Shown: piece after piece, positions 26,818-48,131 of the stretch
How the letters are laid out: every line of letters starts with the position of its first letter
Numbering within the stretch: position 1 is the stretch's first letter
Virus record (IMG/VR): IMGVR_UViG_3300017565_000002
Span: 32,001-96,000 of that record
Length of the DNA: 64,000 nucleotides
Strand: one strand, 5' to 3'
DNA from: a virus
Lineage: Duplodnaviria; Caudoviricetes
Notes under the pieces: generated by a model
What the model saw: only the letters and a program-made list of their open reading frames with translations
Told to the model about the DNA's origin: nothing
Database searches by the model: none
Translations under genes and position numbers: made by a program

Positions 26818-27816
26818 TTAATCTTTCTTATCATTACTTGCTTTCGGGCTACCACCCTTTTTAGTCAGTTCCTTAATCAATGCTGTGGTATAAGACATTG
26901 CTCGCCAGAAGATATTGATCGCAGTGGTGATAAACTGTAATAATGCATCCATAGTACCAGTCATGATTGCAAGACCACCACGTCGTTTATGCTCATCCAA
27001 GTCTCCCTTTATTCTCGTATTCAGGAAGGCACGTTCAAGTTGTCCAAGCTCGGAGATAATCTTGGTTTTCAACGGATTCAAATTCTTAAACATCTTCGCA
27101 CAGGTATCCAATGCTTTAGCGAGACCTGATAGATTTAGCGAGGATATACTATGACTGGTTTTATTCCCAAAGAATGCAGTGGATGCACCTTGAGGGGTGA
27201 AACCATCTTTAGTTTTTTCCAAGTGGAACAATTCCCCGATCCACTTATTCAATAATTCTTGTTTTGTATCTTCCCGTATACCGTTTATTTTTACACCACG
27301 TCTGGATGCATCAACCATTGCTTTTTCCATCTCTGGTGATGTGCCATTCTTGGCAAATCCTTCGAGTGCACCAAACGATTTAACGGCAATATCCAATACC
27401 TTATTGGGTTCGATATCAGAGATCTTCATTAACCCCTCTGGGTAACTGATGGTTCCAGAGAGATTCTTTATATCGAGATTATCTATCTTCCTTTTTAAAT
27501 CATCTACATGTGCTTCGAAAGAACCCTTAAACTTATCCATCATCCAGTTTAAGAATTTTGCAATCTTCTCTTTGATGTAAGAGATGAAAATCTTGAATCG
27601 GTTTCCAAACTCCTCTTGTGCTTCGACGAATAACTGATCCGAAGATTCAAGTAGTTTATCGAACCCGGAGAGAGATTCAAATAATTCATAGGATTCAATA
27701 ATCCAAGATGAATTACGGAATTCGTTTTCATCAGTGATTGTGAAGTCTAGTGTATCACCAGATGGATCAACGATGTCACCCTCACGAATCATTCTAAGTC
27801 TTTCGTGGATATTCAT
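26818..27816 (-). CDS. probable internal head protein, leader family member A
   Basis: MNIHERLRMIREG leader, acidic propeptide with LxE-S/A sites, amphipathic helix FISYIKEKIAKFLNW; own late promoter and terminator. Confidence 0.7.
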   Translation of the reverse strand: MNIHERLRMIREGDIVDPSGDTLDFTITDENEFRNSSWIIESYELFESLSGFDKLLESSDQLFVEAQEEFGNRFKIFISYIKEKIAKFLNWMMDKFKGSFEAHVDDLKRKIDNLDIKNLSGTISYPEGLMKISDIEPNKVLDIAVKSFGALEGFAKNGTSPEMEKAMVDASRRGVKINGIREDTKQELLNKWIGELFHLEKTKDGFTPQGASTAFFGNKTSHSISSLNLSGLAKALDTCAKMFKNLNPLKTKIISELGQLERAFLNTRIKGDLDEHKRRGGLAIMTGTMDALLQFITTAINIFWRAMSYTTALIKELTKKGGSPKASNDKKD

Positions 27817-27844
27817 ATGTGGTTTTCCTCCTTGAAGCTGTAAT

Positions 27845-27856
27845 TAATTAGCTGTT
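27845..27856 (-). promoter_or_regulatory. late promoter motif AACA-N6-TA
   Basis: AACAGCTAATTA. Confidence 0.75.
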
Positions 27857-27867
27857 TAAAAAGGAAA

Positions 27868-27894
27868 GTAGAAGGGAGTCAGTCTCCCTTCTAC
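27868..27894 (-). terminator. hairpin terminator
   Basis: GTAGAAGGGAG / CTCCCTTCTAC perfect 11-bp stem. Confidence 0.7.
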
Positions 27895-27902
27895 GTCTCA
27901 AG

Positions 27903-28880
27903 CTACTCTTTATTCTTAGAACTCTTCACAAGCGTATTCGCAATACGAGCGAAATGATCCAGTGCCTTCCAGAAGATATTCAGTATGAAGGTGATGCACG
28001 TCAGCATCGCATCCATAGCACCCATGATCGCAGAGAGAATTCTTCTCCTTTCGTTGTCTTTCAATTTAGGACTGAAGGTAGTTCTTTCAAGTTGTCCTAA
28101 TTTAGAGACGAGTGTAGATTTTACGCTTGAGATACCATTGAATACACCAACGGTGGAATCTAGACCTTTTGTGAAGCGAGCCGTGTTTATCTCAGAAAGT
28201 TCTACTTCCTCAGTATCCCCGAAAATTTGTGAATCGATGACACTTTGCGAAATTTCGCCTTTTTCTGTTACGAGTCCTTTCATGTCGAATAACTCACGCA
28301 TGATTTGTTCTATGGTATTGTGTTTAACGGCCTTCCGTATGTCCGAGCTGGACGCGTTTTGGTCATTGGCGATATCCCCTACCAACCCGTCCATTATATC
28401 TTTGGAGTCACCGGTGCTCATATAGCGTTGAATCATTTGATGTAATTCACCAAATGCTCCAGCGATATCCGAAGCCTTGATTTCCTCAATTGCTTCTAAA
28501 TTCTCCGGTACTGCAATTGTTCCCTTTAAGTCACTGGTGTTTATCGACGATAGCTGTTTCTTTATCGCTTGAACCTTGGATTCATAGGTTCCTTTGAATT
28601 TCGCCATCATCCAGTTTAAGAATTTTGCAATCTTCTCTTTGATGTAAGAGATGAAGACTTTGAAGTGACTACCGGATTCTTCTCTCGTTTCTAAGAAGAG
28701 ATCAGACGATTCCAGCAGTGCATCAAACCCGGAGAGAGATTCAAATAGTTCATAGGATTCAACAATCCAAGATGAATTTTGGAACTCATTCTCATCTGTG
28801 ATTGTAAAGTCCAGTGTTTTACCGGAAGGTTCAATGATATCCCCTTCTCGGATTAGTCTAAGTCTTTCATGAATATTCAT
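27903..28880 (-). CDS. probable internal head protein, leader family member B (paralog of A)
   Basis: First ~90 aa nearly identical to member A; remainder diverged. Confidence 0.7.
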   Translation of the reverse strand: MNIHERLRLIREGDIIEPSGKTLDFTITDENEFQNSSWIVESYELFESLSGFDALLESSDLFLETREESGSHFKVFISYIKEKIAKFLNWMMAKFKGTYESKVQAIKKQLSSINTSDLKGTIAVPENLEAIEEIKASDIAGAFGELHQMIQRYMSTGDSKDIMDGLVGDIANDQNASSSDIRKAVKHNTIEQIMRELFDMKGLVTEKGEISQSVIDSQIFGDTEEVELSEINTARFTKGLDSTVGVFNGISSVKSTLVSKLGQLERTTFSPKLKDNERRRILSAIMGAMDAMLTCITFILNIFWKALDHFARIANTLVKSSKNKE

Positions 28881-28906
28881 GTATATTTCCTCCTTAGTCT
28901 ATCGTT

Positions 28907-28918
28907 TAATTACTTGTT
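28907..28918 (-). promoter_or_regulatory. late promoter motif AACA-N6-TA
   Basis: AACAAGTAATTA. Confidence 0.75.
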
Positions 28919-28957
28919 TAAAAAGTGAAGGAAGGGGAAGAAATCCCCTCTCTTTAG

Positions 28958-29875
28958 TTATTTTGACTTTTCAATCATGATATGCAATAGGTTATACATA
29001 ATGATCGCGGACTTCAGCATAACACGAGCTAGGGTATTGTATACGATAAGAGATGCGTTGTATAGTTTTGGTGCTGCATCCATTGCCAGCTCAATATACA
29101 CAGGGTTCTTACTATTTTTGATGAGTTTATCTAGGTTTGTAATATCTGCTCTGAGTGTATATTGCCACTTGCTACTACTTTGCTCGAACTCTTTTACAAT
29201 TGTTTGGAACTGTCTGATAAGTGTGCGTTTGGAAATATCATTTACCTTAACTGATTCTACTGGTCCAAAGATGAACTTTGACATGGCATCCACATCAGAT
29301 GTATCAATCTTGTATCCCCTGAAGACTACAAACCTAAGGTAGTTTTCAGCGATATGCTCTGCTGATGGTGCGACACCATGATTATTCACATATTCGGTAA
29401 ACGCACCACGAGGGAGTTCATTCGCTACGCCTGTTTCAAGAATACTATTCATTGCATCACGCATGACTTCTTGTAGCATAGGTAAGATAACCGTAATATC
29501 AATCTGTGGTTCAGTTAGGAACTTAGGGATACTCTGGACCATGGCTGGATCGGAGAACTCCCTTATCTTAGATGCATTCCGATTGACGTGATCCAGTCTC
29601 CGTCCGAAGTCAGCCTCTACTTTCTGTGTGAATAAACGGAAGAAGCTGATGATTTTGTCTATGATAAAACGGAGAAGGTCTTTGAATCGTTCATATAGAT
29701 GATAACGATTCTGTTTCATATCTGCATATATTGCACCCAAACTAGATTCTTGCATAAGTGTCTGTGCGTTAGCTATTTGATAGTAGGCTTGCTCGAATGT
29801 GAGTGTCTTGTACGAATCATTGGTTTCTACAAAGACACCCTCTGTGATCATCTTAATGCGCTCTGCAATATTCAT
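28958..29875 (-). CDS. probable internal head protein, leader family member C
   Basis: MNIAERIKMITEG leader; helix RFKDLLRFIIDKIISFF parallels that of A and B. Confidence 0.65.
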   Translation of the reverse strand: MNIAERIKMITEGVFVETNDSYKTLTFEQAYYQIANAQTLMQESSLGAIYADMKQNRYHLYERFKDLLRFIIDKIISFFRLFTQKVEADFGRRLDHVNRNASKIREFSDPAMVQSIPKFLTEPQIDITVILPMLQEVMRDAMNSILETGVANELPRGAFTEYVNNHGVAPSAEHIAENYLRFVVFRGYKIDTSDVDAMSKFIFGPVESVKVNDISKRTLIRQFQTIVKEFEQSSSKWQYTLRADITNLDKLIKNSKNPVYIELAMDAAPKLYNASLIVYNTLARVMLKSAIIMYNLLHIMIEKSK

Positions 29876-29946
29876 GATTTACCTCCTGTATCTGGTGTAT
29901 TTTAATTTGAAAGTGAGAATCATGATGATTTCCATATTTTTCATTC

Positions 29947-29972
29947 TATTTAGCTGTTTGAACATAGAGGTA
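29947..29972. promoter_or_regulatory. back-to-back divergent late promoters
   Basis: Minus AACAGCTAAATA (29947-29958) and plus AACATAGAGGTA (29961-29972). Confidence 0.7.
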
Positions 29973-30004
29973 AGCAGTTAACTTAACATCTAGGAGGCAC
30001 AACC

Positions 30005-30778
30005 ATGAGTATTGAAGTAACTGTAAGTGTAACGTTGCCAATAGACGATGCCAAGGCCCTGCTCTCATTTCTGGCAGGTATGAATGCACCTGTGATCATT
30101 GATCCGCCTATACCGGAGGGTGATGATCCGGTGGATGATATCCCAGATGTACCACCACCTCAAATTATGTATGAGACAAAGGTTATCTATGGTGTAAACT
30201 TTAGGAGTATTCCTAATACATCATCGGAAAGCTATGTCTATCGCATGATACCTAAGGGTGAGGATATACATGTCATTGAGCAAATAGACGATGGTTGGCT
30301 TAAGATTATTGTTCAGGATGGTACGGTAGGTTATATTTCCGCCCTTCCCAAATATACAACCTATTCGCAATCCTCCGATCAAGATAAAACAGCGGACAAG
30401 CTTATTAGCTATGGAGAATCTTTCATGGGTGCTCCCTATAAATTTGGTGCAAAGATGGACGAGCTTGTAGATGGTGTTAGGGTATTCGACTGCTCGTCAT
30501 TTGTAAAGACAGTATTCCGGGATGTATTAGGTATATCACTACCTAGAGTATCGAAAGACCAAGCAACGGTTGGTACTGATGTGAATAAAGAAAATCTCCA
30601 AAAAGGAGATCTAGTATTTTTCACAAGTCGGAATCTGCCTGTTGGACATGTTGCAATATACGCCGGGAATGATAGACTTCTCCATACCTATTCGATTGCA
30701 TCCGGTGGTGTCAGATATACCGGATTTAAAGGAACTCAGTGGGAAGATCGGTTTACAAGTGCAAGACGTCATATTTAA
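30005..30778 (+). CDS. SH3b + NlpC/P60 cell-wall endopeptidase
   Basis: FDCSSF catalytic Cys, GDLVFF, GHVAIY; SH3b-like segment (VNFRSIP...GWLKI....GYI). Confidence 0.92.
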   Translation: MSIEVTVSVTLPIDDAKALLSFLAGMNAPVIIDPPIPEGDDPVDDIPDVPPPQIMYETKVIYGVNFRSIPNTSSESYVYRMIPKGEDIHVIEQIDDGWLKIIVQDGTVGYISALPKYTTYSQSSDQDKTADKLISYGESFMGAPYKFGAKMDELVDGVRVFDCSSFVKTVFRDVLGISLPRVSKDQATVGTDVNKENLQKGDLVFFTSRNLPVGHVAIYAGNDRLLHTYSIASGGVRYTGFKGTQWEDRFTSARRHI

Positions 30779-30788
30779 GAAAAATATA

Positions 30789-30812
30789 ACCCTCTGCAAT
30801 TATGCAGAGGGT
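30789..30812. terminator. bidirectional terminator
   Basis: ACCCTCTGCA-ATTA-TGCAGAGGGT between convergent genes. Confidence 0.8.
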
Positions 30813-30817
30813 CTTTT

Positions 30818-31420
30818 TCAATTCGAGTATTTTTCAACAAGTCTGTCGAACTCGCCAATATAGAACTCAAGTTTAGCGATATTCTTTTTCAGTTTAGCTA
30901 CCTTTCTCTTATCGGAAAAATTTGAAGATGCTGAAAGTTCGGATACCCGTTTTTCCAGCTCCTTCTTGAATTTAAGGGCCTCGGATTTATATTCCTTTGC
31001 GGTTTTGGCATCCATACCACCAATAGCACGGGCCCTCGAAAATAATCGTGTGATCATTGCATAATTCCCGAACCACATATAACTACCTCTGGTCGTAGTC
31101 AACTGATTGACCAGTTTGAGGTCCTTCAATATTTTACTAGGAGGCAATGTGCTCATGTATGCTTTATATCCAGTCTTAACTTTTTGCCAAGCTGAGGCGT
31201 CCTTGGACTTTTCGGCTTCCGACGATTGTTTGATCAAATCGACCAAGGAAGCACCGCCAGCCGCCTCAAACATATATCCATCTACATTTTCGGTCTCAGA
31301 TAAAAAGAATTCCAACGCTGTCTCTTTTAGAAATTCTTCTTCATCTTCATCAAACGCCACGTCCAAATCTTCCAAGGCTTCTCCTTCTCGGATTAGTCGT
31401 ATGCGATCTTTAATATCCAT
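30818..31420 (-). CDS. probable internal head protein, leader family member D
   Basis: MDIKDRIRLIREG leader, very acidic propeptide ending MFEA, basic mature part. Confidence 0.65.
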   Translation of the reverse strand: MDIKDRIRLIREGEALEDLDVAFDEDEEEFLKETALEFFLSETENVDGYMFEAAGGASLVDLIKQSSEAEKSKDASAWQKVKTGYKAYMSTLPPSKILKDLKLVNQLTTTRGSYMWFGNYAMITRLFSRARAIGGMDAKTAKEYKSEALKFKKELEKRVSELSASSNFSDKRKVAKLKKNIAKLEFYIGEFDRLVEKYSN

Positions 31421-31444
31421 GCTCTAACCTCCATTGATTTCGAT

Positions 31445-31456
31445 TATGATAATGTT
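31445..31456 (-). promoter_or_regulatory. late promoter motif AACA-N6-TA
   Basis: AACATTATCATA. Confidence 0.7.
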
Positions 31457-31471
31457 ATAAACGACCACTGC

Positions 31472-32212
31472 TTGGACATATTACCATACTTTGGCTCGGG
31501 AGATGAAGAAATGATACCTATATTTTCAGAACCATCCAATCATACTACGTATCGAAATACATCAGGTGTAGTTGTACCTTCAGTTACAAGCATTATTCAT
31601 ATGATAAATAAACCCGAATTGGTACACTGGGCTAACTCTTTAGGGTTTAAGAGGAAGAGTGTTAGTAAAGAGTTAGACGTATCTGCTTATATTGGTGATA
31701 TTACACACAAGTTGGTGGAAATCTATACTACAACGGGTAAATACTCATATGATATTATAGATCGCAAAGGTCCAGTCGAGAGATTAGGAATTAAAAATGC
31801 ATTCCTATCCTTTCTCCAGATGTATAAGACCGAGCACCCTCATATCGAAATTCATGATACAGAAGTTCAATTGGCCGGAGAGAAATTTGGTGGGACAACT
31901 GACCTTTTGGCTAAATATCATGGTAAGTTTACTATAGGAGATTACAAGACTAGCAAAGGATTCTATCCTACGATGTTTTTACAAATTGCAGGATACGATC
32001 TTCTACTCCGAGAGCTTGGATTATTTAAAGCCGAGCAATACGTCGTGTTCTTGTTAGATAAACGAGATGGTAGACCTGCCAAGATAAAGATATGTGACGA
32101 TAAAGATCAGATGCAGCTATATCGGAAGTGTTTTAAGACTTTGGTCGATTTCTATTACGATTGGTATATGATTAATCAACGCTACTGGGGTAAAGACCTC
32201 CTTGTTAAATAG
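31472..32212 (+). CDS. PD-(D/E)XK (RecB/lambda-exo-like) exonuclease; true start may be 31511
   Basis: PSVTSI, GTTD, DYKT and QxxxY motifs. Confidence 0.85.
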   Translation: MDILPYFGSGDEEMIPIFSEPSNHTTYRNTSGVVVPSVTSIIHMINKPELVHWANSLGFKRKSVSKELDVSAYIGDITHKLVEIYTTTGKYSYDIIDRKGPVERLGIKNAFLSFLQMYKTEHPHIEIHDTEVQLAGEKFGGTTDLLAKYHGKFTIGDYKTSKGFYPTMFLQIAGYDLLLRELGLFKAEQYVVFLLDKRDGRPAKIKICDDKDQMQLYRKCFKTLVDFYYDWYMINQRYWGKDLLVK

Positions 32213-32248
32213 ATTAAACAAGTGATAAATTACTAGGGAGGAATCGTT

Positions 32249-32692
32249 GTGAGTGTTCTGGAGCGAATCGTACTTATTCAAGAAGGTATTTATCATGAAG
32301 AACCATATCTGCAAGAAGCATTTTTCAAGACCAAAGAGGAACGAACCCATAAAAAGCAGATTTATGATGAAGTGATTAAAATGCGTAGGAAGCTACTGGC
32401 AGAAATCGAAACGACGATTAAAACCAAAGACAATGTCCGGGCTATAGATAATTTGATAACTTCTTATGTTAATAAGTATAAGGACGATAAGATTGCATTG
32501 GTCGTTATTAGAAAGGAACTGATCGGTTCACTTTTTGAAAAAGCGTGGGAAATTCAATGGCATCCTAGTAGTTACCATGGCGATGCATTACAGAAAAAGA
32601 ATTATAAATTCGATCCAGACGTGATTGATCAGTTGCATGTCCTCTACAGGGACAAGAGGAAGCAGCTTAAAGATCTGATCAAAAAATTGTAA
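32249..32692 (+). CDS. probable internal head protein, leader family member E
   Basis: GTG start, GGGAGG RBS; MSVLERIVLIQEG leader then LQEA; one-mismatch late motif AACAAGTGATAA at 32217-32228. Confidence 0.6.
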   Translation: MSVLERIVLIQEGIYHEEPYLQEAFFKTKEERTHKKQIYDEVIKMRRKLLAEIETTIKTKDNVRAIDNLITSYVNKYKDDKIALVVIRKELIGSLFEKAWEIQWHPSSYHGDALQKKNYKFDPDVIDQLHVLYRDKRKQLKDLIKKL

Positions 32693-32703
32693 TCAAAAAA
32701 GAG

Positions 32704-32729
32704 AGCATAGAGGCTAAGTCCTCTATGCT
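32704..32729 (+). terminator. intrinsic terminator
   Basis: AGCATAGAGG / CCTCTATGCT followed by a T run. Confidence 0.8.
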
Positions 32730-32794
32730 TTTTATATTTCCACCATAACGACCAATTATATATGATCATGGTGTAGATTATAATCTAATGGGAG

Positions 32795-33508
32795 ATGATG
32801 AGTTTGAGGTTTCTCGGACGTTTTAGGAGATCAAAGAAAGACCATTTACATGAAATTGATGCTGAGGATCTTAGATTATCAATTATAATCATCGCCAGTC
32901 TTCACAGCAGCACACTCAAGCGTATCAATTCATTTGGTTGTCATCTTCCTATTGTCGAAACTATCCTGGCATTTTTAGATACCAATCCCTATTTCAACGA
33001 TGATGATATCAAGAAATATATGATTAGGGTCCTCAATTATGAACGATATTTATTTTCAAGAGGTGTAATAAACATTCTTAACACTGACTACATAGAACGC
33101 CTGCATACACGACTTAAAGTATGGAAGAAAAATCAGGAGAAAGGGAAAGACACCGGTCCTTTTTATTTAAACCGCGACGTGGAGCAGCTAGAAATGTTCC
33201 TCCAATCAATGGATAACACTATGGAGTTTATTGTACATTACGACACTTTATTTACCACCGTCACTCAGAAAGCCATGGATGAAGTTACGAAATACTCCGA
33301 AGCCATGGAGAGGATGTTGGGCCAACATCCTGAAGAGGCAGAAATCATAAATTCTTGTAAAGTCATAGTTACTGTATCGGCATTATACTTAAACGAACCT
33401 TATGGTCAGATATTTAATGACATAGACTCTGAAATTCTCGTCAAGGCACGATTGGCTATAAGGAATACGATGAATGCTATTCAGGAGATTTTATTGCAGA
33501 AAGAGTAG
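32795..33508 (+). CDS. hypothetical protein
   Basis: 237-aa ORF, GGGAG RBS, variant early motif ATATATGAT at 32758-32766. Confidence 0.7.
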   Translation: MMSLRFLGRFRRSKKDHLHEIDAEDLRLSIIIIASLHSSTLKRINSFGCHLPIVETILAFLDTNPYFNDDDIKKYMIRVLNYERYLFSRGVINILNTDYIERLHTRLKVWKKNQEKGKDTGPFYLNRDVEQLEMFLQSMDNTMEFIVHYDTLFTTVTQKAMDEVTKYSEAMERMLGQHPEEAEIINSCKVIVTVSALYLNEPYGQIFNDIDSEILVKARLAIRNTMNAIQEILLQKE

Positions 33509-33554
33509 AAACCCTACTCTTTCTTTTTTGACGATGATGAAGGGGTGTATTGAT

Positions 33555-33980
33555 ATGGCTATAATGATTATAGAAGAAAAAGATCTATTTACAGTAGATG
33601 AATCTTACCATTTGGTGCACTGCATAAGTGCAGATTATGCATTAGGTAGGGGAATCGCCAAGGAGTTCGATAAACGATTCAATCTTAGGTTTAAGCTCCA
33701 AAGAGTCGGAAGTGGTATCTATCCCGACTGCATACTAATCGGTAGGGTATTTAATTTGGTTACCAAGAAAAGTTACGCCTCGAAACCTACATATAAAACT
33801 TTGGTTGAGGCATTAATTCAAATGAGGCAGTGGGTAGAAGAAAGATTTATATTGAAGCTTGCAATGCCTAAGATCGGTTGTGGGCTAGATAGATTAGAAT
33901 GGGGAAAAGTATTGAAAGCCATTGAGCTTGTATTTGATAGGGTAGATATTGAAATCAGGATATGCATATGGGGTGATTAG
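33555..33980 (+). CDS. TARG1/OARD1-like macrodomain ADP-ribosylhydrolase
   Basis: Start revised to MAIMII. Motifs HCISAD..LG.GIA, LVTKK...KPTY and LAMPKIGCGLDRLEW closely match TARG1. Confidence 0.9.
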   Translation: MAIMIIEEKDLFTVDESYHLVHCISADYALGRGIAKEFDKRFNLRFKLQRVGSGIYPDCILIGRVFNLVTKKSYASKPTYKTLVEALIQMRQWVEERFILKLAMPKIGCGLDRLEWGKVLKAIELVFDRVDIEIRICIWGD

Positions 33981-34296
33981 ATTGATAAAAATTGAAGAGT
34001 TGGATAGGCTGATAGAGGTCGGTGCAAGTATTAGGGATATACTCTTAATCGTAGCAGATACAATCTCTAACCAGCCATCAGAATTAGGAAGAGATCAGTT
34101 ATTGACTGAGCATGGCTTACTGAGTGTTATGTATTGCATCTCGGAGCTACCAACTACAACATGTGCAAGAATCCTATGTTATAATGAAAATACTGTCTCT
34201 ATGCTTCCTACGTCTATAAGCAATCTTTTACCAGTTGACCAGACGAGGAATATAGCTAGTATTCTCCAGCAGTGTAGGCAGATTAAAACTGAATAG
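33949..34296 (+). CDS. hypothetical protein (start uncertain)
   Basis: ORF fills the gap between the macrodomain and the nuclease. Confidence 0.5.
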   Translation: MKSGYAYGVIRLIKIEELDRLIEVGASIRDILLIVADTISNQPSELGRDQLLTEHGLLSVMYCISELPTTTCARILCYNENTVSMLPTSISNLLPVDQTRNIASILQQCRQIKTE

Positions 34297-34368
34297 ATAA
34301 TTTATATTATCTCGAAGATAAAATTTTTCGTTTCGGTTAACTACCCATTAAAGGGTTGTTTTGAAAGG

Positions 34369-35568
34369 GTGATACCTATGTATCGTGATAGACTGAGGAT
34401 ATCGGCACATATAGCCGATATCCATATTGGTGTTCATACTATTACCGCGGAAGAGATTAAATATCAGTTATACGAGAGATTTATTAAACCACTAAGTGAA
34501 CTAGCTATACTAGACCTTATCACTGTCAACGGGGATGTGTCCCATTTATCATTGTCGTTTAACTCAAAACTTGCTGAAGTTTATATCTGGTTCTTCGATA
34601 GTATCGTGTCTATCGCAAAGAAGAAGAACGCCGCAATTATCGTCGTTCAGGGTACATTATCCCATGAATACGATCAGCTTGACAATGTCAAAGTGTATCA
34701 GTCAAGTGTTGAAATGTACTTCGCATCAGAACCTATGGTTGTAGAAACCAAGGGGATGCGAATCTATTGTCTTCCAGATATTCATATCAAAAATAAGGAA
34801 GACGAATCTAAACTTTATAGCTTTCCCGATGGTCACTTTGATATGGTATTGGGCCATGGGAGTATAACGGAAACACAGTTTATTAAACAAGAATCCGAAC
34901 ACGCGATATCAAAGAATATTGTCTACGAGAGTAAGCAACTCGTAAGAATCTGTAAAGGACCAATTCTGTTCGGGCATATACATAGTCCGATGAAGTTTCT
35001 GGGGCGGATCTTCTACATCAATTCCTTTACGCGGTATATCCACGGGGAAGAAGCCGACAAAGGATGGATGTTAACTGCTTATATCCCCGAGACTGCACAG
35101 TTTATTGCAGAGCGGGTGATCAACGACCTCGCATTTAACTTCAATATCTTCACAGTTAGCCACCAGTTGTTTGATAAATTGGATGCAGATGAACTTGTTA
35201 AGAAGATTGACAAATTCGTCAAAGAATATAAAGTAGATCGACTTTGTCTGGAGCTTAACTACATGGCAACAGACGCAAATATCGCCAAGATTCAAATCTT
35301 AAGGAATTACTATAGTAGAGATAAGCATGTCAACAAGCTGAAGATTAAAGCGTTAAGTAAGAAAGAAGCCCAATTGATTGAGCAAAATGAACGTCAAATC
35401 GAAGAGAATAAGAAAAGTTACTTGACAGATAAATCGCTTACTTTTGAAGAAAAGCTTCAACGATTTATTGAGGAGGAATACAACGTAAAGGTTCCAATAT
35501 CGAAATTACACACCGTATTTACCAGTGACGATCTACTCATACGCGAAGGAGTGTCAAGCGTACGATGA
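34369..35568 (+). CDS. sbcD: SbcD/Mre11-like metallophosphoesterase nuclease
   Basis: ADIHIG, NGD, GTLSHE, LGH and GHIH motifs. Confidence 0.85.
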   Translation: MIPMYRDRLRISAHIADIHIGVHTITAEEIKYQLYERFIKPLSELAILDLITVNGDVSHLSLSFNSKLAEVYIWFFDSIVSIAKKKNAAIIVVQGTLSHEYDQLDNVKVYQSSVEMYFASEPMVVETKGMRIYCLPDIHIKNKEDESKLYSFPDGHFDMVLGHGSITETQFIKQESEHAISKNIVYESKQLVRICKGPILFGHIHSPMKFLGRIFYINSFTRYIHGEEADKGWMLTAYIPETAQFIAERVINDLAFNFNIFTVSHQLFDKLDADELVKKIDKFVKEYKVDRLCLELNYMATDANIAKIQILRNYYSRDKHVNKLKIKALSKKEAQLIEQNERQIEENKKSYLTDKSLTFEEKLQRFIEEEYNVKVPISKLHTVFTSDDLLIREGVSSVR

Positions 35569-37451: not shown

Positions 37452-37513
37452 GGGGGGAAATATATATCATCCACGATCTTGTTGAGCAATACAAGCTCAC
37501 GCGTTTAGGGTTA

Positions 37514-38313: not shown

Positions 38314-38328
38314 GGATAATCCCTCCTA

Positions 38329-38715: not shown

Positions 38716-38749
38716 TAAATATAACACCTCTCGAAAGGGTAGATTTATA

Positions 38750-39247: not shown

Positions 39248-39256
39248 GGTTAAATT

Positions 39257-40453: not shown

Positions 40454-40472
40454 TATTTTTTTAAACTAGTCT

Positions 40473-40484
40473 AACAGATGAATA
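40473..40484 (+). promoter_or_regulatory. late promoter motif AACA-N6-TA preceding a non-coding unit
   Basis: AACAGATGAATA; the predicted +1 (40484) is the first base of the first stem. Confidence 0.6.
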
Positions 40485-40642
40485 TCCGATTGGGCCGCGC
40501 GGATTGCGGGGCTAGTTTCGGATACAGCTTAGGGTATTATACCTCGGTCGTTGAGAAGATTGGCCGATCGAGGTATTTACCCGACCCCAAACCCCAATAT
40601 CTCCCCATACGCCCGCTCTCAGCGTATGGGGAAACTACTTTT
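40484..40642 (+). ncRNA. candidate novel structured ncRNA (~155 nt)
   Basis: About 56% GC (hand count). Three stem-loops (40484-40523, 40532-40582, 40602-40632) and a C-rich linker; no credible ORF. Confidence 0.6.
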
Positions 40643-40717
40643 AAATTAATTCTAATTATACATCAAACAAATTTATGATTAATACCCATCCTAGAAGCGT
40701 CACTTTATTTTTCAGAC

Positions 40718-40726
40718 ATATATTAT
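40718..40726 (+). promoter_or_regulatory. early promoter motif ATATATTAT
   Basis: Exact copy upstream of the 40815 gene. Confidence 0.7.
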
Positions 40727-40814
40727 TGACGTGTACTAGGTAGTATATTTAAGTACCGCCTAACGACTTAGCCAGGTCTAAGTTGGACAACCCATTTTAA
40801 GGAGGAAGCAATAC

Positions 40815-41282
40815 ATGTCTAACAAACTTAAGCATCAACTGAAGCAATTGAGAAAGCAGCAAGAGAAGTATCAAGAAGCTGTGGCGTTACAACAAGCCAC
40901 ATGCCCGCATATCAGCAAGAAGGGGAACAGCTGGCTTGTGCCTTTTACCGACGTCGATAAAGTCGAAAAGGGCAGATGCAAAAAATGCGGTGCCGTTATC
41001 TATATCGATCAACACCTGCTTGGTGGAGACAGTCTTAAAATGTCTACGAACGTGGTCAAATCAGTCTTGGCAGAAATTCGCGCGGCAAACCGCGAGGGTA
41101 AAATCGAATTGAATGATTCTGAAATGGATCTTATCACTCGATTCGACGCCCAAATTTTGAGCGAACTTCCAAAGACGATTGAAAGCTTGACGCAGGCATC
41201 TAAGAAGAAAAAGAAAGATAAAGGCAAGAAGAAAGATAAAAAGAAAAAGGCATACAGAGAGTACACACGGAAAAAGTGGTAG
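40815..41282 (+). CDS. early protein with Zn-ribbon (CPH...CKKC) and Lys-rich tail
   Basis: AAGGAGG RBS; Cys/His pattern; KKKKKDKGKKKDKKKK tail. Confidence 0.75.
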   Translation: MSNKLKHQLKQLRKQQEKYQEAVALQQATCPHISKKGNSWLVPFTDVDKVEKGRCKKCGAVIYIDQHLLGGDSLKMSTNVVKSVLAEIRAANREGKIELNDSEMDLITRFDAQILSELPKTIESLTQASKKKKKDKGKKKDKKKKAYREYTRKKW

Positions 41283-41342
41283 TATAAACTTTCCAACCGG
41301 GTATTCTTATAAAATGATCTTTTGTCGACAGAAGACCATTTA

Positions 41343-41368
41343 CGAGTACGGGAGAAATCCCGTACTCG
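41343..41368 (+). terminator. intrinsic terminator (GAAA loop)
   Basis: CGAGTACGGGA-GAAA-TCCCGTACTCG followed by a T run. Confidence 0.8.
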
Positions 41369-41394
41369 ATTATTTTTTGTAGAGGAGGCTAATT

Positions 41395-41631
41395 ATGATT
41401 AAGACACGCAGAAAACTTATTCCGAAAAGACCGCGTGTTGTGGTGTCTGTGTCGGGTGGTGTAGCGGAGATCGAACATAACCCGGAAAACTTGGGAGTTC
41501 TTATCATAGATTTGGATAATGGGGAATCCCCTGTCGATGTAGTCGTTATAGTCGAAGGTGGGGTTGCCTACGAATGGCAATCCTCAGATGTTAATTTAGA
41601 GATCGTCGATTATGACAATGAAGAAGATTAA
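41395..41631 (+). CDS. small protein made of two tandem ~35-aa repeats
   Basis: VVVSVSGGVAE...LIIDLDN / VVVIVEGGVAY...EIVDYDN; GAGGAGG RBS. Confidence 0.75.
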   Translation: MIKTRRKLIPKRPRVVVSVSGGVAEIEHNPENLGVLIIDLDNGESPVDVVVIVEGGVAYEWQSSDVNLEIVDYDNEED

Positions 41632-41657
41632 TATATAGATTATAATTTTTTTACCTT

Positions 41658-41666
41658 ATATATTAT
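41658..41666 (+). promoter_or_regulatory. early promoter motif ATATATTAT
   Basis: Exact copy upstream of the topoisomerase operon. Confidence 0.7.
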
Positions 41667-41724
41667 CTTTTTGGTATCTACTAATTTACAAGACCGAAAA
41701 CAATTCAATGGGAGATGAACAAAT

Positions 41725-41811
41725 GTGGACTTTACTGAAGTTCCAGCAAAGATTATCGATGCCATGACTTATTTTAATACAATATGGCAACAAGTAAAGA
41801 ATTTGAAATAG
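41725..41811 (+). CDS. putative 28-aa leader ORF
   Basis: GGGAGA RBS, GTG start, MDFTEVPAKIIDAMTYFNTIWQQVKNLK; stop overlaps the gyrB RBS. Confidence 0.4.
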   Translation: MDFTEVPAKIIDAMTYFNTIWQQVKNLK

Positions 41812-41822
41812 GAGGTTGACGC

Positions 41823-44183
41823 ATGTATATCATACATCGGCGACATCGTATCGGGTTTAACCCATACGAGTACAATGATGCGTCCGTAACTGTACTTACG
41901 GAAGACAGACTAAGAGTACGAGCCACACCAAAGCTTTACCTTCCTAACGTAGGGAAGGAAGGTGCACTCCATTTGATTGAGGAAGTTGTGGCAAATGCCA
42001 TTGACGAGATTTCATCTCCGGGATCAGTAGGAAATGAGGTTATCGTTATTTACGATGAAAGGACTAAGACTGTTATTGTGCAAGATAACGGTCGGGGATT
42101 TCCTTTCAATAAGCTATTTGACATGTGTGAAGTTCTGAACTCCAGTGCAAAGATGGGTGAAGGTGCAAGAGCCTACAGTACATCCGGTGGTGTACATGGT
42201 ATGGGTCTTAAACTGGTCAACTATTTCACGGAGTATATGACCATTCATACGGAACGCGAAGGAAAGTCTCTGAAGGTTCATTATGTCGATGGACTTCGGA
42301 AAGAAGTTAAACATGGGAAGTCAAAAGAAACTGGTACTTCTGTAGAGTGGAAATACGATAAACGCTTCTTTACCGATATCAATATCACATGTGAAGACAT
42401 CCTGACGATGTTGAGATTAAAAAGTTATGTACTTCGTCTCGGTGCTTCCGTTATCTTTAAAGGAAAGCTCAAGGATGGTTCGGATGTATTAAAGGAGTTC
42501 AAAGATAATACTTTGAAAGACTTCCTTAAACAGCATTCGATCAGTGTTCCTCCGATTGAAATCTCGGATATCTTCGGAGGCGATAGCATCCACGCGATGT
42601 TTAGCTTCAACTCCGAGGCTACCGAGGGTTATACATTTGCGGCGTATACAAATAATATCTTCAATAAATTGGGCGGTTCTCATGTCGATGGCATTCTGGA
42701 AGGGATAAATAGTTTCTTCCGGTCATATCTATATGACGAATACCTGTCTGATAAAGAAAAGAAAGAATTGAAGATTAAAGCTGAAGATTCTCGACTGGGA
42801 TTAGTGGGTATTGTATCCGTACATACACACAATCCATCCTTCGAGGGTGGTCAGCATAAAGCACTTCTTGGTATGAACTCCGTTAAGAATTTTGCATTCC
42901 GGGCGACCCGGAAGGTATTACGTCAAATGGATAAATCCAAGTTGAATAAATTCGCTGCCATCATCAAGGCTAATGCAAAGGCTAGGCAAGCATCTGAGGA
43001 AAGTAAGAAGAGAGTAAAGAAAGATATTACAAATGCGTTCTCTGCTGATAAGATTGAAAACTTTCGACCAATATCTAAGCGCTCTACGCGGTCAGATACG
43101 GAAATGTTTATCGTAGAGGGATTGTCAGCGATGGGTGCAATGGAAGCTGTTGCAGATCGTGACACCCAAGCATTGCTGGCCATTCGTGGTAAACTCGATA
43201 ATGTATTTGATCTTACGCCAGAAGAAGCTGTTAATAAATCTGAATTCGTATCGAACATGGTCGACATTTTTGGTTGTGGTATTGGGAAGACGTTTGATAT
43301 TAAGAAATTCCCGTATGAGCGTATATACCTTGCGACTGATGCGGATACCGACGGAAATGAAATTGCTTGCCAAGGTGCCATGATATTCTTCCGCTTCTTT
43401 GAACCCGTTGTAACGGCTGGGAAGTTATATCGTGCTGTACCGCCACTATATGAAATTCGTCAAGATGGGAAATCAATGTTTGTCCCAACGAGTCGTATAT
43501 TCTTGACGATAACTCAACAAAACTTCGTTAAGCAAAATACAGTCTATTTGAACGGTAAGCCATTGAGAGGGGACCATATTCTTGATCTCCTGATGCGAAA
43601 CGAGACTTACGTTACTCAAATCAATCGTATTGCAGATGAGTACGCCATTTCTCCAATATTATGTGAGTTTTTAATTAAGAATCAAGCAATTGGGTTTGGA
43701 AATGATACAGTGGATAAGTGGAGCAAAGCACTGGCACGTAATTTTACGTTCTTGAAGGTTCAACCCGGAGAATTTGGTATCTCCATCGTTGGGATGATCA
43801 AAACCGAGTTTAATCTGTTTGATTATGTAAAAGAATTTAGCGAGGACATCCAAACAATATCCCTCGATAGGGAGTTTTATGGGTATTCGATCAATGATAA
43901 AGATAAGTCCCACCTATCCTTATATGAAACGCTGAAAGAATTCGAAAAGTTTCAGCCGAATATCATATCTAGGTTTAAAGGTCTCGGTGAGATGAATTCG
44001 AAAGACATGAAGCGTACGATCATGGAACGGAAAGTCCGCCATAGCATTCGTCTCACAGCAAGGCATCTCCAAGACACATATGATAAACTTGCTGTCATGC
44101 ATTCACGGAGACCAAACTATCAGAAGCTTAGAAAGGAATTCATTTCAAACTTTAAATTCGATATCATGGATATCGATACGTAG
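41823..44183 (+). CDS. gyrB: type IIA topoisomerase subunit B (GyrB/ParE-like)
   Basis: EVVANAIDE, DNGRG, GGVHGMG, VEGLSA, TDADTDG and RFKGLGEM motifs. Confidence 0.95.
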   Translation: MYIIHRRHRIGFNPYEYNDASVTVLTEDRLRVRATPKLYLPNVGKEGALHLIEEVVANAIDEISSPGSVGNEVIVIYDERTKTVIVQDNGRGFPFNKLFDMCEVLNSSAKMGEGARAYSTSGGVHGMGLKLVNYFTEYMTIHTEREGKSLKVHYVDGLRKEVKHGKSKETGTSVEWKYDKRFFTDINITCEDILTMLRLKSYVLRLGASVIFKGKLKDGSDVLKEFKDNTLKDFLKQHSISVPPIEISDIFGGDSIHAMFSFNSEATEGYTFAAYTNNIFNKLGGSHVDGILEGINSFFRSYLYDEYLSDKEKKELKIKAEDSRLGLVGIVSVHTHNPSFEGGQHKALLGMNSVKNFAFRATRKVLRQMDKSKLNKFAAIIKANAKARQASEESKKRVKKDITNAFSADKIENFRPISKRSTRSDTEMFIVEGLSAMGAMEAVADRDTQALLAIRGKLDNVFDLTPEEAVNKSEFVSNMVDIFGCGIGKTFDIKKFPYERIYLATDADTDGNEIACQGAMIFFRFFEPVVTAGKLYRAVPPLYEIRQDGKSMFVPTSRIFLTITQQNFVKQNTVYLNGKPLRGDHILDLLMRNETYVTQINRIADEYAISPILCEFLIKNQAIGFGNDTVDKWSKALARNFTFLKVQPGEFGISIVGMIKTEFNLFDYVKEFSEDIQTISLDREFYGYSINDKDKSHLSLYETLKEFEKFQPNIISRFKGLGEMNSKDMKRTIMERKVRHSIRLTARHLQDTYDKLAVMHSRRPNYQKLRKEFISNFKFDIMDIDT

Positions 44184-44195
44184 TGGAGGGAAGAT

Positions 44196-46658
44196 ATGTA
44201 TCGTTTAAGATTCAAACCCGAATTTGAGCGACAACGTTATGGGGATAATGATTGGGAGAATATCGATAATGAAGATCTGGGATCATTTGATGAGAAACAT
44301 GTTGCAACTCACGCGATGAATCGAAATCTCCAAAGAGATATCCCGTTCTTCTATGACGGTCTAAAGACCGTTCAACGCCGTTTGTTGTACTCAATGGCAC
44401 TGATGGGCCTATGGCCTGATAAGAAAGATCACAAGAAGAATATGACTAAAGCTGCGGGTGTTATCGGTGAGGTACTTACCAGATTCCACCCACATGGTGA
44501 GCTAAGTTCATATAAGGCTCTGATCTATATGCGTCAGCCTTGGAGACACTTACTCCCCTTAATTGATTTCAATGGAAACTATGGGACGGCAAAAGATCCG
44601 AACTCTTACGCACATATGCGATATGTAAGTGCGCGACTATCGGAATTTGCATACGATTGCTTCTTTGACTCTGATGAATGGGACTTGAAATCGGATCTGG
44701 TAGATCGACGTGTATCCTTTAACGGTAAAGATCTGGAGCCGATTTATCTACCGGCCAAATATCCTTTATTCCTTATGGGTTGGAGTAGCGGAATAGGGCA
44801 TGGGTTATCGACAAGTAGTCCGGGGTTTTTGCCACAAGATGCGATGCAGACTGTTATCACATTAATCGACAACCCCGATGCCGATTTTGTTCTATATCCG
44901 GAAGATCCGTTAGGCTGCACAATTCTGGATAAGAAAGTGTTTAAGAAATTTGTGGACTACACACCAACTATCACGGATGATACAAATCTAACATTCCGCG
45001 TTCGCTCTAACTATAGTGTGACAAAGGATACAATCATCGTTCATAACACACCGTTTGAGGTGAATCCGGTTATGATCGAAAAGCGTATCAAAGAACTTGT
45101 TATCGGTGGGAAACTAGATGGTATCTCGGATATTGAGATCAATCTTAGACCCGGAACAATCCCACAGTTAGGTGAAGACGGTAACACAGCAGAGATTATA
45201 ATTGACGTTAAAAAGGGTTTTGACCCACATATTTTGATGGATAAGCTATACAAGGTGACTGAGCTTCAAGTCACATTCCCATTGAATTGTGTATACGTCA
45301 TGACTGATCATAATGTCAAGTTTAATCTGAGACAGAGCATCTTGACATGGATTAACCTAAGACGTCGTGTGTTGAAACGGATGTTCCGACTTCGGCTAAG
45401 CGATGACTCTAAGCGGATATACGTGCTGGATGCTCTTATTAAGATCTTTGATAAAAATGGCATTGAAACTGTAATTAAGATCATCAAGAATAATAAACGC
45501 CAAGAAGCTATCAACCTACTCATCAAGTCGTTTGATATCAGCGATTATCAAGCCAATCAGATCCAGAATATGCGTATTCGGGATTTGTCACCGGAGTCGT
45601 ACGACGACTATGTCAATGAGCGGAAGAAGCTTATGAAGAAGATTGATGAGGTTCAAGAAATCTTGAAATCCAAGAAGGGTATCGACAAACTCATCAAGAA
45701 GCAAATGGAAGAAGGTATACAGAAGTATTCGAGGAAGAGATTGTCTAAGGTCATAAACCTAAGCGATGATAGTGTGGACGACGAATCTACCCACATCGTT
45801 GCTGTTACGGATACGACTTTTGTCAAGAAGTTGTCGACAATAGATGATGGTCTCGGCAAACTCCCTCAAGACTCTAAGTTTATCTTTATGCGGAAAGCCG
45901 TTTCGAATGCAGCCAAGTTGTTTATGTTTACACCGTCCGGTCGAGTATTCAGCGAGTTCGTGCATAAAATAAAGCTGTCTAGCATTGAAGGTGTTGGTAT
46001 GTACTTCCGCCGGAAGATGAAGACTGATGATATCCAGTTTACATCGGCGGTTGCAGCATTAACGAATACAAAGTCGTCGCTTATCTTTGTGACGAAGCGA
46101 GGCGGAGTCAAGCAGACAAAGACAGAAAACTATTTCGCCACGTCACAGAACAGCACCGCGACAAGATTACAAGATGGAGATTCTTTGGTATCCATCATTG
46201 AGTCGACATCCGACAAAGATCGTATCTTGATCTACACCAAAAATGGGAAGTGTGGGCTGTTTAACGTGAAGGATATCACCTTAACGTCCCGTACGACTGT
46301 TGGTGTCATTGGCATAAGACTGGAAGACGGGGATGAAGTTATCGGAGCCTGTCTGGTTGCAAGTAACCACAGCCACTTCATCACAGTCTCCATTAAAGGA
46401 GAGTTCAAGCGAGTTTCACTTGAGACTTCTCTGACCTCTATGCGTAGAGGAGATCTGGGTGTAGACATAATGGCAAGATCGGAAGAATTGAACGCAGTAT
46501 TTTCGATAGATTCGAAGACCAAGTCTATCATGATTCTTGCCGGAGACGAACTAAAGGAGATCGACATTGAGACGATCCCGATTAGAACACGTCTTTCCAA
46601 TGGGGAGAAGCTGATAAACTGGCTTCGGGGATATCAAGTCGTTCGGGTAAATGACTAA
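44196..46658 (+). CDS. gyrA: type IIA topoisomerase subunit A (GyrA/ParC-like)
   Basis: DGLKTVQRR, HPHG, GNYG, MRY catalytic Tyr, C-terminal pinwheel blades. Confidence 0.95.
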   Translation: MYRLRFKPEFERQRYGDNDWENIDNEDLGSFDEKHVATHAMNRNLQRDIPFFYDGLKTVQRRLLYSMALMGLWPDKKDHKKNMTKAAGVIGEVLTRFHPHGELSSYKALIYMRQPWRHLLPLIDFNGNYGTAKDPNSYAHMRYVSARLSEFAYDCFFDSDEWDLKSDLVDRRVSFNGKDLEPIYLPAKYPLFLMGWSSGIGHGLSTSSPGFLPQDAMQTVITLIDNPDADFVLYPEDPLGCTILDKKVFKKFVDYTPTITDDTNLTFRVRSNYSVTKDTIIVHNTPFEVNPVMIEKRIKELVIGGKLDGISDIEINLRPGTIPQLGEDGNTAEIIIDVKKGFDPHILMDKLYKVTELQVTFPLNCVYVMTDHNVKFNLRQSILTWINLRRRVLKRMFRLRLSDDSKRIYVLDALIKIFDKNGIETVIKIIKNNKRQEAINLLIKSFDISDYQANQIQNMRIRDLSPESYDDYVNERKKLMKKIDEVQEILKSKKGIDKLIKKQMEEGIQKYSRKRLSKVINLSDDSVDDESTHIVAVTDTTFVKKLSTIDDGLGKLPQDSKFIFMRKAVSNAAKLFMFTPSGRVFSEFVHKIKLSSIEGVGMYFRRKMKTDDIQFTSAVAALTNTKSSLIFVTKRGGVKQTKTENYFATSQNSTATRLQDGDSLVSIIESTSDKDRILIYTKNGKCGLFNVKDITLTSRTTVGVIGIRLEDGDEVIGACLVASNHSHFITVSIKGEFKRVSLETSLTSMRRGDLGVDIMARSEELNAVFSIDSKTKSIMILAGDELKEIDIETIPIRTRLSNGEKLINWLRGYQVVRVND

Positions 46659-46663
46659 AGAAA

Positions 46664-46691
46664 AGGCAGAGAGGATTTCTCCTCTCTGCTT
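46664..46691. terminator. bidirectional terminator
   Basis: AGGCAGAGAGGA / TCCTCTCTGCTT between convergent genes. Confidence 0.8.
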
Positions 46692-46700
46692 ATTTTTTTT

Positions 46701-48131
46701 TCATTCAGGTCCGATCAGGTTCATCAGGCTTTCTCGGTCCTTGGTGTCAAAATGATGAAATTCTTTCAGGATATCATAGCATTCTTGAAGTGTTTGGGGG
46801 TCTTTTGTTTCTTTAGGCAACTCTTCAAGTCCATCGATATAATTCAAATCCTTAGGCCTCAATCCAAAGAACAGAATCCGTATATCATCGTTATTTTTAA
46901 TGATCTTATTCATAGCCTTACGATAGATCACGATATCCTTATCCTTGAATTTACTCTTTTCTGCAACTTTCTTAAATTCCTCCAATTTCTTCTTAGCTTC
47001 ATCTAAATCTTTCTTGATTTCATCATATGCATCTTCGTTTATTTCTTTCTTTAACTCTTTCTCAAGGTTATCGACAATAGCTTGGAATCTTGTTATGTTC
47101 AATGGATGCGGATCAAACGCTAACCGGACGATACTAAAAGGAAGTGAAAGAAGTCGAGTCAGTGGGTTGCGTATCATCAGTGTATTAGCCCGTGTGTTAA
47201 ACTTACCTAGGCTTGAGATTATATCTCCACCATAGCCATACACGGTAGAAATGTAGTCACTTAGTAATTCTTGTCTATATCTGGATTTAAGTGTAAAGAT
47301 GTTTGAAAATGCTATGACGGCTCCCACAACGTTTAGTTTTTTACCGACACCTATGGTGGCTAAGAATATCCTTTTCCATGCGTCTAAAAATATCTTAGTT
47401 GGTTGGTTATGCGTCAAAATTGCTATCGTGTTTCTAATAGTAGTGAAAGTACCAAAAAGACCACTTATAACCAGTTGTGTTTCTTTGGCAGCAACAGCGT
47501 CACGCCTTGGTACTTTCGAAAAGTTATCTATCATTCGAGCTATGAAGTTGTCAACCTTCTCAAATGTAGGCGTTATGAATTTATTTAGCAGCATATACAT
47601 TATCAATGGTACGACAGTAACACCAAATGCCAATGCTGTTAGTGCATTTTGTATCTGGGCGGAAGGTAGAACCATCTTCATTGAGTGACCAATCTCATGG
47701 AGGATGATACCCACACACTCAGCACCAGTGAATTTACCCAATGCCATGAGTGTTAGGTCAATAAATATAACAGCCTCTACCTGGTCTTCTGTCTTAAACG
47801 CAACACCAGTCTCCGTCCGTTGAAGTTCTAATTTTTTAACAACATATTTAAATTTAAAGGTAGTGACTGGAATTGTCATGGCCAACGATGCCGGGAGGGT
47901 ACTGATGACCAGTTTTTTGAAGTTAAACATCTCTTGAAGAATGGCTTGAACCTGTTTAACTTCTTTTCGTCCATCTTTGGACCGCAACGCTTTCTCCATT
48001 AATCTTTCACATTCCAATAGTTTTTCATTTTTCCCATAGTAAGCTTCATGAATCAGTTGTCCCGGGGATTCTGCTGGTGGTGTATCTATTTGACCTTCTT
48101 GTATCAACCGCAATCGCTCACGTATGTCCAT
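46701..48131 (-). CDS. M48/HtpX-like zinc metallopeptidase, leader family member F
   Basis: MDIRERLRLIQEG leader; ILHEIGH, ELLSD and HPLNITR motifs; hydrophobic helices. Confidence 0.75.
   Translation of the reverse strand: MDIRERLRLIQEGQIDTPPAESPGQLIHEAYYGKNEKLLECERLMEKALRSKDGRKEVKQVQAILQEMFNFKKLVISTLPASLAMTIPVTTFKFKYVVKKLELQRTETGVAFKTEDQVEAVIFIDLTLMALGKFTGAECVGIILHEIGHSMKMVLPSAQIQNALTALAFGVTVVPLIMYMLLNKFITPTFEKVDNFIARMIDNFSKVPRRDAVAAKETQLVISGLFGTFTTIRNTIAILTHNQPTKIFLDAWKRIFLATIGVGKKLNVVGAVIAFSNIFTLKSRYRQELLSDYISTVYGYGGDIISSLGKFNTRANTLMIRNPLTRLLSLPFSIVRLAFDPHPLNITRFQAIVDNLEKELKKEINEDAYDEIKKDLDEAKKKLEEFKKVAEKSKFKDKDIVIYRKAMNKIIKNNDDIRILFFGLRPKDLNYIDGLEELPKETKDPQTLQECYDILKEFHHFDTKDRESLMNLIGPE

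Follow-up and report, generated by a model that had tools for sequence, protein, structure and literature searches.

Why do proteins with different bodies, encoded in one phage genome, begin with the same short peptide? The question is raised by a 64,000-nucleotide stretch of DNA (the window), which comprises bases 32001-96000 of the single-contig, 215,803-bp virus record IMGVR_UViG_3300017565_000002 with direct terminal repeats, and in which six open reading frames (ORFs) start with such a peptide, hereafter the leader. The genome (~216 kb) is complete and belongs to an uncultivated soil jumbo phage, a kin of Bacillus phage AR9. It encodes split multisubunit RNA polymerase (RNAP) subunits, a PhuZ-like tubulin, type II topoisomerase subunits, helicases and a gp21-family prohead protease. 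The nearest characterised relatives, Bacillus phages AR9 and PBS1, are distant, with ~34% identity in the RNAP beta subunit and ~22% in the major capsid protein. Here we show that the leader is exclusive to N-termini, is conserved as a peptide and is carried by unrelated bodies in a late, head-module context, together with a characteristic pattern of potential cleavage sites. We consider it probable (roughly 0.6) that the leader is a T4-style capsid-targeting propeptide that the prohead protease cuts off.

Occurrence and conservation of the leader

The leader comprises 12-13 residues at the extreme N-terminus of 11 carrier proteins, with the consensus M-x-[IVL]-x-[ED]-[RK]-[LI]-x-[LMF]-I-x-E-G. 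The six peptides listed in a preliminary description of the window were all found in place and on the strands given there, each at an ORF start behind a Shine-Dalgarno site. When the whole genome was translated in six frames, the strict motif of that description matched only these six ORF starts. The relaxed core [RK][LIVM]x[LMIVFRK]IxEG gave 11 matches in residues 1-17 of ORFs, together with a single internal match in 66,777 residues. A 20-column profile of the leader gave exactly 11 matches in the genome, all of them ORF starts (E values 2.5e-10 to 1.3e-7), with nothing further at E<=10. All 11 leaders finish by residue 17, and only I10, E12 and G13 are invariant. In g182, g189 and g208 the leader contains RIQLIREG.

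Synonymous codons varied between the copies of the leader, Arg being encoded by AGA, CGC, CGA, CGT and CGG, with Leu codons varying too. RNA folding of the 5' regions of the leader genes revealed no structure that was common to them or unusually stable (z-scores -1.2 to +0.9). A nucleotide-level or RNA element was thereby ruled out; since the codons diverge and no RNA structure is shared, the conserved entity is the peptide and not a nucleic-acid element. Comparison of g057 and g058 extended this to the rest of the pro-region. The two proteins are 44% identical overall, with 88% identity in the pro-region (columns 1-60) as against 34% in the rest, although identical codons at conserved residues amounted to 59% and 52%, respectively, that is, to a similar synonymous divergence. 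The cargo body thus evolves far faster than the pro-region, and the similar codon divergence argues for purifying selection on the propeptide and not for recent gene conversion.

Searching the leader profile against 1.84 billion representative proteins gave no true foreign match. The lone foreign match, an NHL-repeat protein in which RIRMIRxGQ recurs internally, was judged to be due to chance. On the sequences searched, the leader is private to the lineage of this phage, and the papers retrieved on jumbo-phage capsid targeting sequences and on AR9/PBS1 virions mention no such motif, as the preliminary description had supposed for AR9-like phages.

Carrier proteins, candidate cleavage sites and genomic setting

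The carriers span ~7 unrelated families, namely one paralogue family, g083, g101 and the four orphans g061, g063, g116 and g208. Five of the 11 (g057, g058, g059, g182 and g189) are paralogues; the other six have unrelated bodies, and none of these six matched any other carrier once the first 20 residues were trimmed. The description of the six proteins in the window as unrelated was therefore inaccurate for g057, g058 and g059. No relatives of g061 with its leader trimmed were found among families, in the ESM Atlas or by jackhmmer, and PHROGs, Pfam and the Atlas returned nothing informative for g061 and g063. In g208, a transmembrane helix follows straight after the leader. In g116, the leader is followed by ~45 residues that are almost purely Asp/Glu and then by a 119-residue body with an isoelectric point (pI) of 11.3; the net charge is -24 in the pro-region and +20 in the body. 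The protein is a candidate for an internal protein that binds DNA and has its charge neutralised by the propeptide.

The carrier g083 was identified through phrog_2767, through tblastn matches to AR9, PBS1 and BpSp, and through a phmmer match to the AR9 'zincin protease' g051 (E=2.4e-17). It keeps the HEIGH (HExxH) motif, and none of the Pfam peptidase models matched it at E<=0.01. Its leader and spacer form a 29-residue N-terminal extension ending in LIHE/AYYGKN (here and below the slash marks the putative boundary), where AR9 g051 has only MVRTLLLE/SYFGKN. Zincin-like genes number two, as in AR9 (g118, which adjoins the capsid gene, and g051). The second one here, g103, likewise adjoins the capsid gene; it has HDVSH instead of HExxH and is without the leader, whereas g083 keeps both HEIGH and the leader.

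The paralogue family has at least seven members (g057, g058, g059, g182, g188, g189 and g190) and stayed closed at these seven with the first 20 residues removed; a decayed leader can still be made out in the leaderless g188 and g190. An extension of the family to g185, g186, g061 and AR9 g216 was rejected, as it hinged on the first 20 residues and became borderline (E=0.003-0.004) upon trimming. A search for homologous proteins of g058 gave g057 and g058 itself and nothing else. In the AlphaFold model of g058, built with 10 paralogues as input, residues 1-68 had a predicted local distance difference test score below 50, and residues 69-325 formed a confident helical body (predicted template modelling score 0.72). 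The 50 best Foldseek matches of this model in BFVD were mostly virion structural proteins of phiKZ-like phages (201phi2-1, Psa21, Noxifer, PhiPA3 and others; E 3e-4 to 3e-2, template modelling (TM) scores 0.3-0.5) and included a 268-residue AR9 'virion protein', by its length g096. The best structural match in the PDB was a phiKZ capsid chain (E=0.23). The ESM Atlas linked g058 by features and structure (TM score 0.58) to clusters carrying PF12699 (phiKZ_IP), and hmmscan of g057, g058 and g059 gave no PF12699 match at E<=0.01. From this likeness of predicted folds, the family is likely, though unproven, to belong with the phiKZ-type internal head proteins.

The end of the leader, I-x-E-G, fits the T4 gp21-type cleavage consensus of a hydrophobic residue, any residue and Glu before a small residue, and is a candidate cleavage site. 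The preliminary description had placed cleavage only in the acidic segment downstream, and there it missed the most conserved candidate, which is the invariant I-x-E-G of the leader itself. The acidic segments with [LFMI]-x-E-[AS] sites that it had reported after the leader were borne out: the carriers have a mean of 1.5 extra [LIVMF]-x-E-[GAS] sites in their first 60 residues as compared to 0.34 in other proteins, and acidic residues make up 26% of residues 14-60 as compared to 14% in others. Further hydrophobic-x-E-[GAS] sites lie in the acidic spacer of 10 of the 11 carriers, and the spacer mostly precedes a basic body. Alignment of 10 paralogues revealed a column of invariant Glu (L-x-E, then S or T; position 57 in g058) shortly before the first conserved helix of the folded domain. 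The virion cluster g180-g200 is the richest in [LIVMF]-x-E-[GAS] sites close to the N-terminus, and the protease g099 itself has YYIVE/A at residues 13-18. A candidate maturation site of the capsid protein, ELLEE/S, was aligned by eye with AILQE/S of AR9 and NIME/S of LPJP1. In AR9, hydrophobic-x-E in residues 3-16 was not enriched in 38 virion or structural proteins as compared to 237 others (p=0.48, p=0.22), and an 'LLxE' N-terminal signature of AR9 virion proteins was dropped since it showed no enrichment over other AR9 proteins.

In the head module, the virion protein g098 and the protease g099 are followed divergently by g100, g101, g102 (the major capsid protein), a zincin-like protein and TerL, in synteny with AR9 g112-g121. 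The product of g099 is a gp21-family prohead protease (phrog_3014, E=1.6e-12; phrog_207, 8e-10), syntenic with AR9 g114; its match to PF03420 (E=1e-5, 21.8 bits) is under the 27-bit cut-off. The carrier g101, with its leader, strongly acidic tract and helical C-terminus, sits between g099 and g102, i.e. in the classical position of a scaffold, and AR9 g116 is its equally acidic positional counterpart. The major capsid protein g102 is without the leader. Head-internal status is thus supported by gene position for g101 and suggested by modelled fold likeness for the paralogue family. Among neighbouring genes, g056, g193 and g194 are homologues of the AR9 virion proteins g281, g215 and g214.

The scaffold-position proteins of two IMG/VR relatives, G001 and G002 (L027 3438-4253(-) and L029 3939-4676(-)), start with MDFLNILLEA/K and MDIFDILKEA/K, followed by acidic tracts. 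That of LPJP1 begins MKDDFFNYLFEA/D. Judged from these N-termini, a short peptide ending in hydrophobic-x-E-A seems to be ancestral to the scaffold-position protein across the group. A private multi-gene leader in G001 and G002 was considered and rejected, as a profile of the N-termini of their scaffold proteins found no further genes.

AACA-N6-T[A/G] is the late promoter consensus of AR9 (PMC5312081). In the present genome AACA-N6-T[AG] occurs at 1.82 sites per kb within 100 nucleotides (nt) upstream of genes as compared to 0.37 genome-wide, a 5-fold excess with its peak at -50 to -31, and it stands before the genes of the major capsid protein and the tail sheath and before the virion operons. 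The AACA-N6-TA motif that had been reported before the six genes of the window was confirmed exactly for five of them (at -36 to -40 for four and at -83 for g059) and with one mismatch for g063. Among all carriers, the late motif stands directly upstream of g057, g058, g061, g083 and g116 at -36 to -41, and g101, g182, g189 and g208 lie inside operons headed by it. Apart from that of g063, all transcription units with a carrier are headed by it, and AR9 g051, g096, g115, g117 and g216 likewise carry it. By their promoters, the carriers belong to the predicted late expression class, g063 being the least secure. All carriers have a late promoter or belong to a virion operon, with g063, whose promoter has one mismatch and which lies beside replication genes, as the doubtful case. 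The late motif, often as AAACA-N5-ATTA, stands in front of 40 genes genome-wide. The non-virion RNAP of AR9 reads its late promoter on uracil-containing template DNA, and by analogy the DNA of this phage may be modified too.

Table. Leader genes, late promoter motifs and other features discussed in the text (window coordinates unless marked as genome; aa, amino acids)
Feature	Coordinates	Strand	Remarks
g057	26818..27816	-	332 aa; leader codons 1-13 (27778-27816); acidic pro-region to ~residue 65; internal-head-protein-like body
AACA-N6-TA	27845..27856	-	40 nt upstream of g057
g058	27903..28880	-	325 aa; leader 28842-28880; paralogue of g057
AACA-N6-TA	28907..28918	-	38 nt upstream of g058
g059	28958..29875	-	305 aa; leader 29837-29875; distant member of the g057/g058 paralogue family
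AACA-N6-TA	29947..29958	-	83 nt upstream of g059; beyond the usual -31 to -50
g060	30005-30778	+	no carrier; see text
g061	30818..31420	-	200 aa; leader 31382-31420; orphan; charge -14 in pro-region and +14 in predicted mature part; pI 9.9
AACA-N6-TA	31445..31456	-	36 nt upstream of g061
AACA-N6-AA	32217..32228	+	one mismatch; 32 nt upstream of g063
g063	32249..32692	+	147 aa; GTG start; leader 32249-32287; basic orphan; charges -4 and +9
g083	46701..48131	-	476 aa; leader 48093-48131; zincin-type (HEIGH) protein, homologue of AR9 g051
AACA-N6-TA	48157..48168	-	37 nt upstream of g083
MF-start gene	1008-2039	-
MF-start gene	50485-51378	+
MF-start gene	53778-54467	+
PhuZ-like tubulin	51520-52737	+	phrog_4733, E=7e-8
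g101	genome start 98987	+	carrier outside the window
g116	genome 115682-116227	+	carrier outside the window
g182	genome start 171665	-	carrier outside the window
g189	genome start 178742	-	carrier outside the window
g208	genome start 194201	-	carrier outside the window
g103	genome 101398-102591		zincin-like, adjoins capsid gene
Cpn60/GroEL-family gene	genome 137929-138594
g180-g201 virion cluster	genome 169967-190597

A putative capsid-targeting propeptide and its rivals

The capsid targeting sequence of T4 is said to go back to Mullaney and Black in 1996, and we know of no sequence similarity between it and the leader. Its 10 residues, which stand on IPI, IPII, IPIII and Alt, include determinants of targeting (residues 4 and 7) and of processing (residues 8 and 10); it is removed by the prohead protease gp21, which has a LIE-9 site of its own (PMC9026906). 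The leader resembles it as a short (10-20 residue) N-terminal peptide common to otherwise dissimilar proteins, in which a putative targeting part precedes a hydrophobic-x-Glu site, with a gp21-family protease encoded nearby and predicted mature cargo that is basic. It differs in belonging to an AR9/phiKZ-type jumbo phage, in the longer acidic spacer with extra sites and in that its function is putative.

A second likeness is to the propeptides of inner-body or ejection proteins in phiKZ, 201phi2-1 and SPN3US, where a paralogous family with a conserved extreme N-terminus is also found (PMC5694885, PMC10052503). There, too, the first site lies at about residues 12-15 and further x-x-E sites precede the mature domain, and the likeness of the g058 family reaches to the level of the predicted fold. 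Cleavage of phiKZ gp93 takes place at SLE-13, and gp53 and gp54 of SPN3US have an identical 15-residue N-terminus, called reminiscent of T4 sequences by the authors (PMC5694885). N-terminal conservation is reported only between paralogues in those phages, whereas the leader also occurs on non-homologous proteins, and the P3 residue is small (S/A/G) in phiKZ and SPN3US but hydrophobic in the leader, as in T4. AR9 and PBS1 share with this phage the order of the head module, the late promoter motif, an acidic scaffold-position protein (AR9 g116) and two zincin paralogues, and the AR9 virion proteins g096, g214, g215 and g281 have counterparts here. In contrast, AR9 has no detectable multi-gene leader, and the start of its g051 lies immediately ahead of the conserved body. 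What appears to be new is a sharply conserved single tag on ~7 unrelated families in an AR9/phiKZ-type phage, present also on the scaffold-position protein and private to one lineage.

If the leader is a capsid-targeting propeptide, its N-terminal helix (residues 3-11) would bind to some constituent of the prohead core, and binding would co-assemble the carrier into the procapsid together with the leader-bearing scaffold-position protein g101. Since g101 has the same leader, the simplest model is that all leader-bearing proteins assemble into the core together. Cleavage by g099 would then follow, after the invariant Glu (I-x-E/G) and also at the hydrophobic-x-E/[GAS] sites of the acidic spacer; the acidic fragments would leave, and the mostly basic mature bodies would stay with the DNA inside the head. 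Ejection of the carriers into the host may follow by analogy to T4 and the phiKZ-type phages. A portable packaging tag cut by the prohead protease, as envisaged in the preliminary description, is therefore the best-supported reading; its 'injected arsenal' of effectors is overstated, as at least one carrier resembles a protein of the scaffold or core, and a number of them are small basic proteins that are not recognisable as effectors.

Leader and acidic spacer might serve only processing or latency, by docking the protease or as an intramolecular inhibitor, with head targeting specified elsewhere. The invariant residues do coincide with the putative cleavage site, pro-regions and bodies are oppositely charged, and the zincin g083 plausibly needs latency. 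However, about six non-homologous carrier families have only the leader in common, so that it is their sole common handle if all of them enter the head, and the homologous-looking layout in T4 unites both functions in one peptide; we hold this alternative to be unlikely. A tag recruiting a chaperone or assembly factor, such as a phage GroEL-like protein, has a precedent in the N-terminus of T4 gp23, which recruits GroEL for folding (PMC10052503), and a Cpn60-family protein is encoded in the genome. It is nevertheless highly improbable, given that the major capsid protein itself is without the leader, that the carriers are small and mostly helical or disordered, and that both I-x-E-G and the pattern of sites downstream would be left unexplained.

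Another subcellular address, be it a compartment like the phage nucleus, the membrane or the cell pole, would suit the PhuZ-like tubulin and the transmembrane helix just past the leader of g208. Yet a search of the complete genome for the phiKZ nuclear shell protein gave no homologue at E<=1, the leader is charged and so not Sec- or Tat-like, and the carriers, g063 excepted, cluster with head genes and not with replication genes; such an address is very improbable indeed. Still less credible, and already disfavoured, is the view that the leader is left over from common ancestry or gene conversion and serves as no signal. Although five of the 11 carriers are paralogous and degenerate remnants of the leader persist in g188 and g190, six carriers have unrelated bodies, synonymous sites are as diverged as elsewhere while the peptide is kept, and the leader is strictly N-terminal in 11 of 11.

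Several observations weigh against a capsid-targeting propeptide or against the head-internal identity of its carriers. The scan of the full genome and of relatives that had been proposed gave the 11 carriers in this genome, which served as the positive control, and none in five IMG/VR relatives (34-42% RNAP identity); as these relatives are without the leader and two of them show no other leader shared among several of their genes, the comparison lends no support. The short helix at residues 3-11 of g058 in the AlphaFold model is only modestly amphipathic, and complex prediction of g099 with residues 1-45 of g058 gave a score of 0.00, which is no evidence either way. The least secure carrier, g063, heads a plus-strand block containing replication genes behind an imperfect promoter. 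In a search of the genome with PF12699, the best scores were 10.8-13.7 bits, on g180, g182 and g191, as against the 27-bit Pfam cut-off. Three of the four hits in this genome share model region 89-145, as do most hits in relatives, and similarly weak hits occur in AR9 g096, BpSp, LPJP1 and two IMG/VR relatives. Alignment of the paralogue family with AR9 g096 by hhalign was not significant (probability 6%). Finally, the DNA of the phage is present in soil metagenomes of two studies, and the phage is known from soil metagenomes only.

Giant phages sort dozens of internal or ejected proteins into their heads, and to our knowledge only long heterogeneous propeptides and N-terminal conservation restricted to paralogues have been described for phiKZ-type phages. 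A tag of 12-13 residues is a well-defined element that can be mutated to probe targeting, processing and the delivery of cargo in these phages and, if the proposed function is true, would be a candidate tool to load foreign proteins into large capsids. It also suggests that the T4 solution of a targeting helix and a hydrophobic-x-Glu site recurs or persists across very distant phages with gp21-type proteases.

A second N-terminal class and neighbouring genes

Starts with Met-Phe (MF), mostly MF[DNS], occur in 12 of the 22 genes of the virion cluster g180-g201 as compared to nine of 203 elsewhere (Fisher p=5e-9), and g189 combines an MF start with the leader. Internal-protein-like genes of G001 and G002 start with MSIF or MAIF, and gp53 and gp54 of SPN3US with MANF; an aromatic residue near the N-terminus may thus be an older shared feature. 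Leader and acidic spacer could form a portable code for loading, processing and delivery with the DNA, and the MF class could mark a sub-compartment or the order of loading, but we regard such two-tag sorting as rather doubtful.

Amid the leader genes, g060 lies on the opposite strand with a late promoter of its own, and its C-terminal 135 residues match the tail-protein PHROGs phrog_329 (E=1e-23) and phrog_1015, one of which is a tail protein with lysin activity. None of the RNA runs searched for the phage DNA contains it. In the second soil study, positions 26818-32692 of the window were present as low-coverage contigs, and a search for polymorphism across the leader genes there gave zero differences; the same genotype thus occurred in at least two sampled soils.

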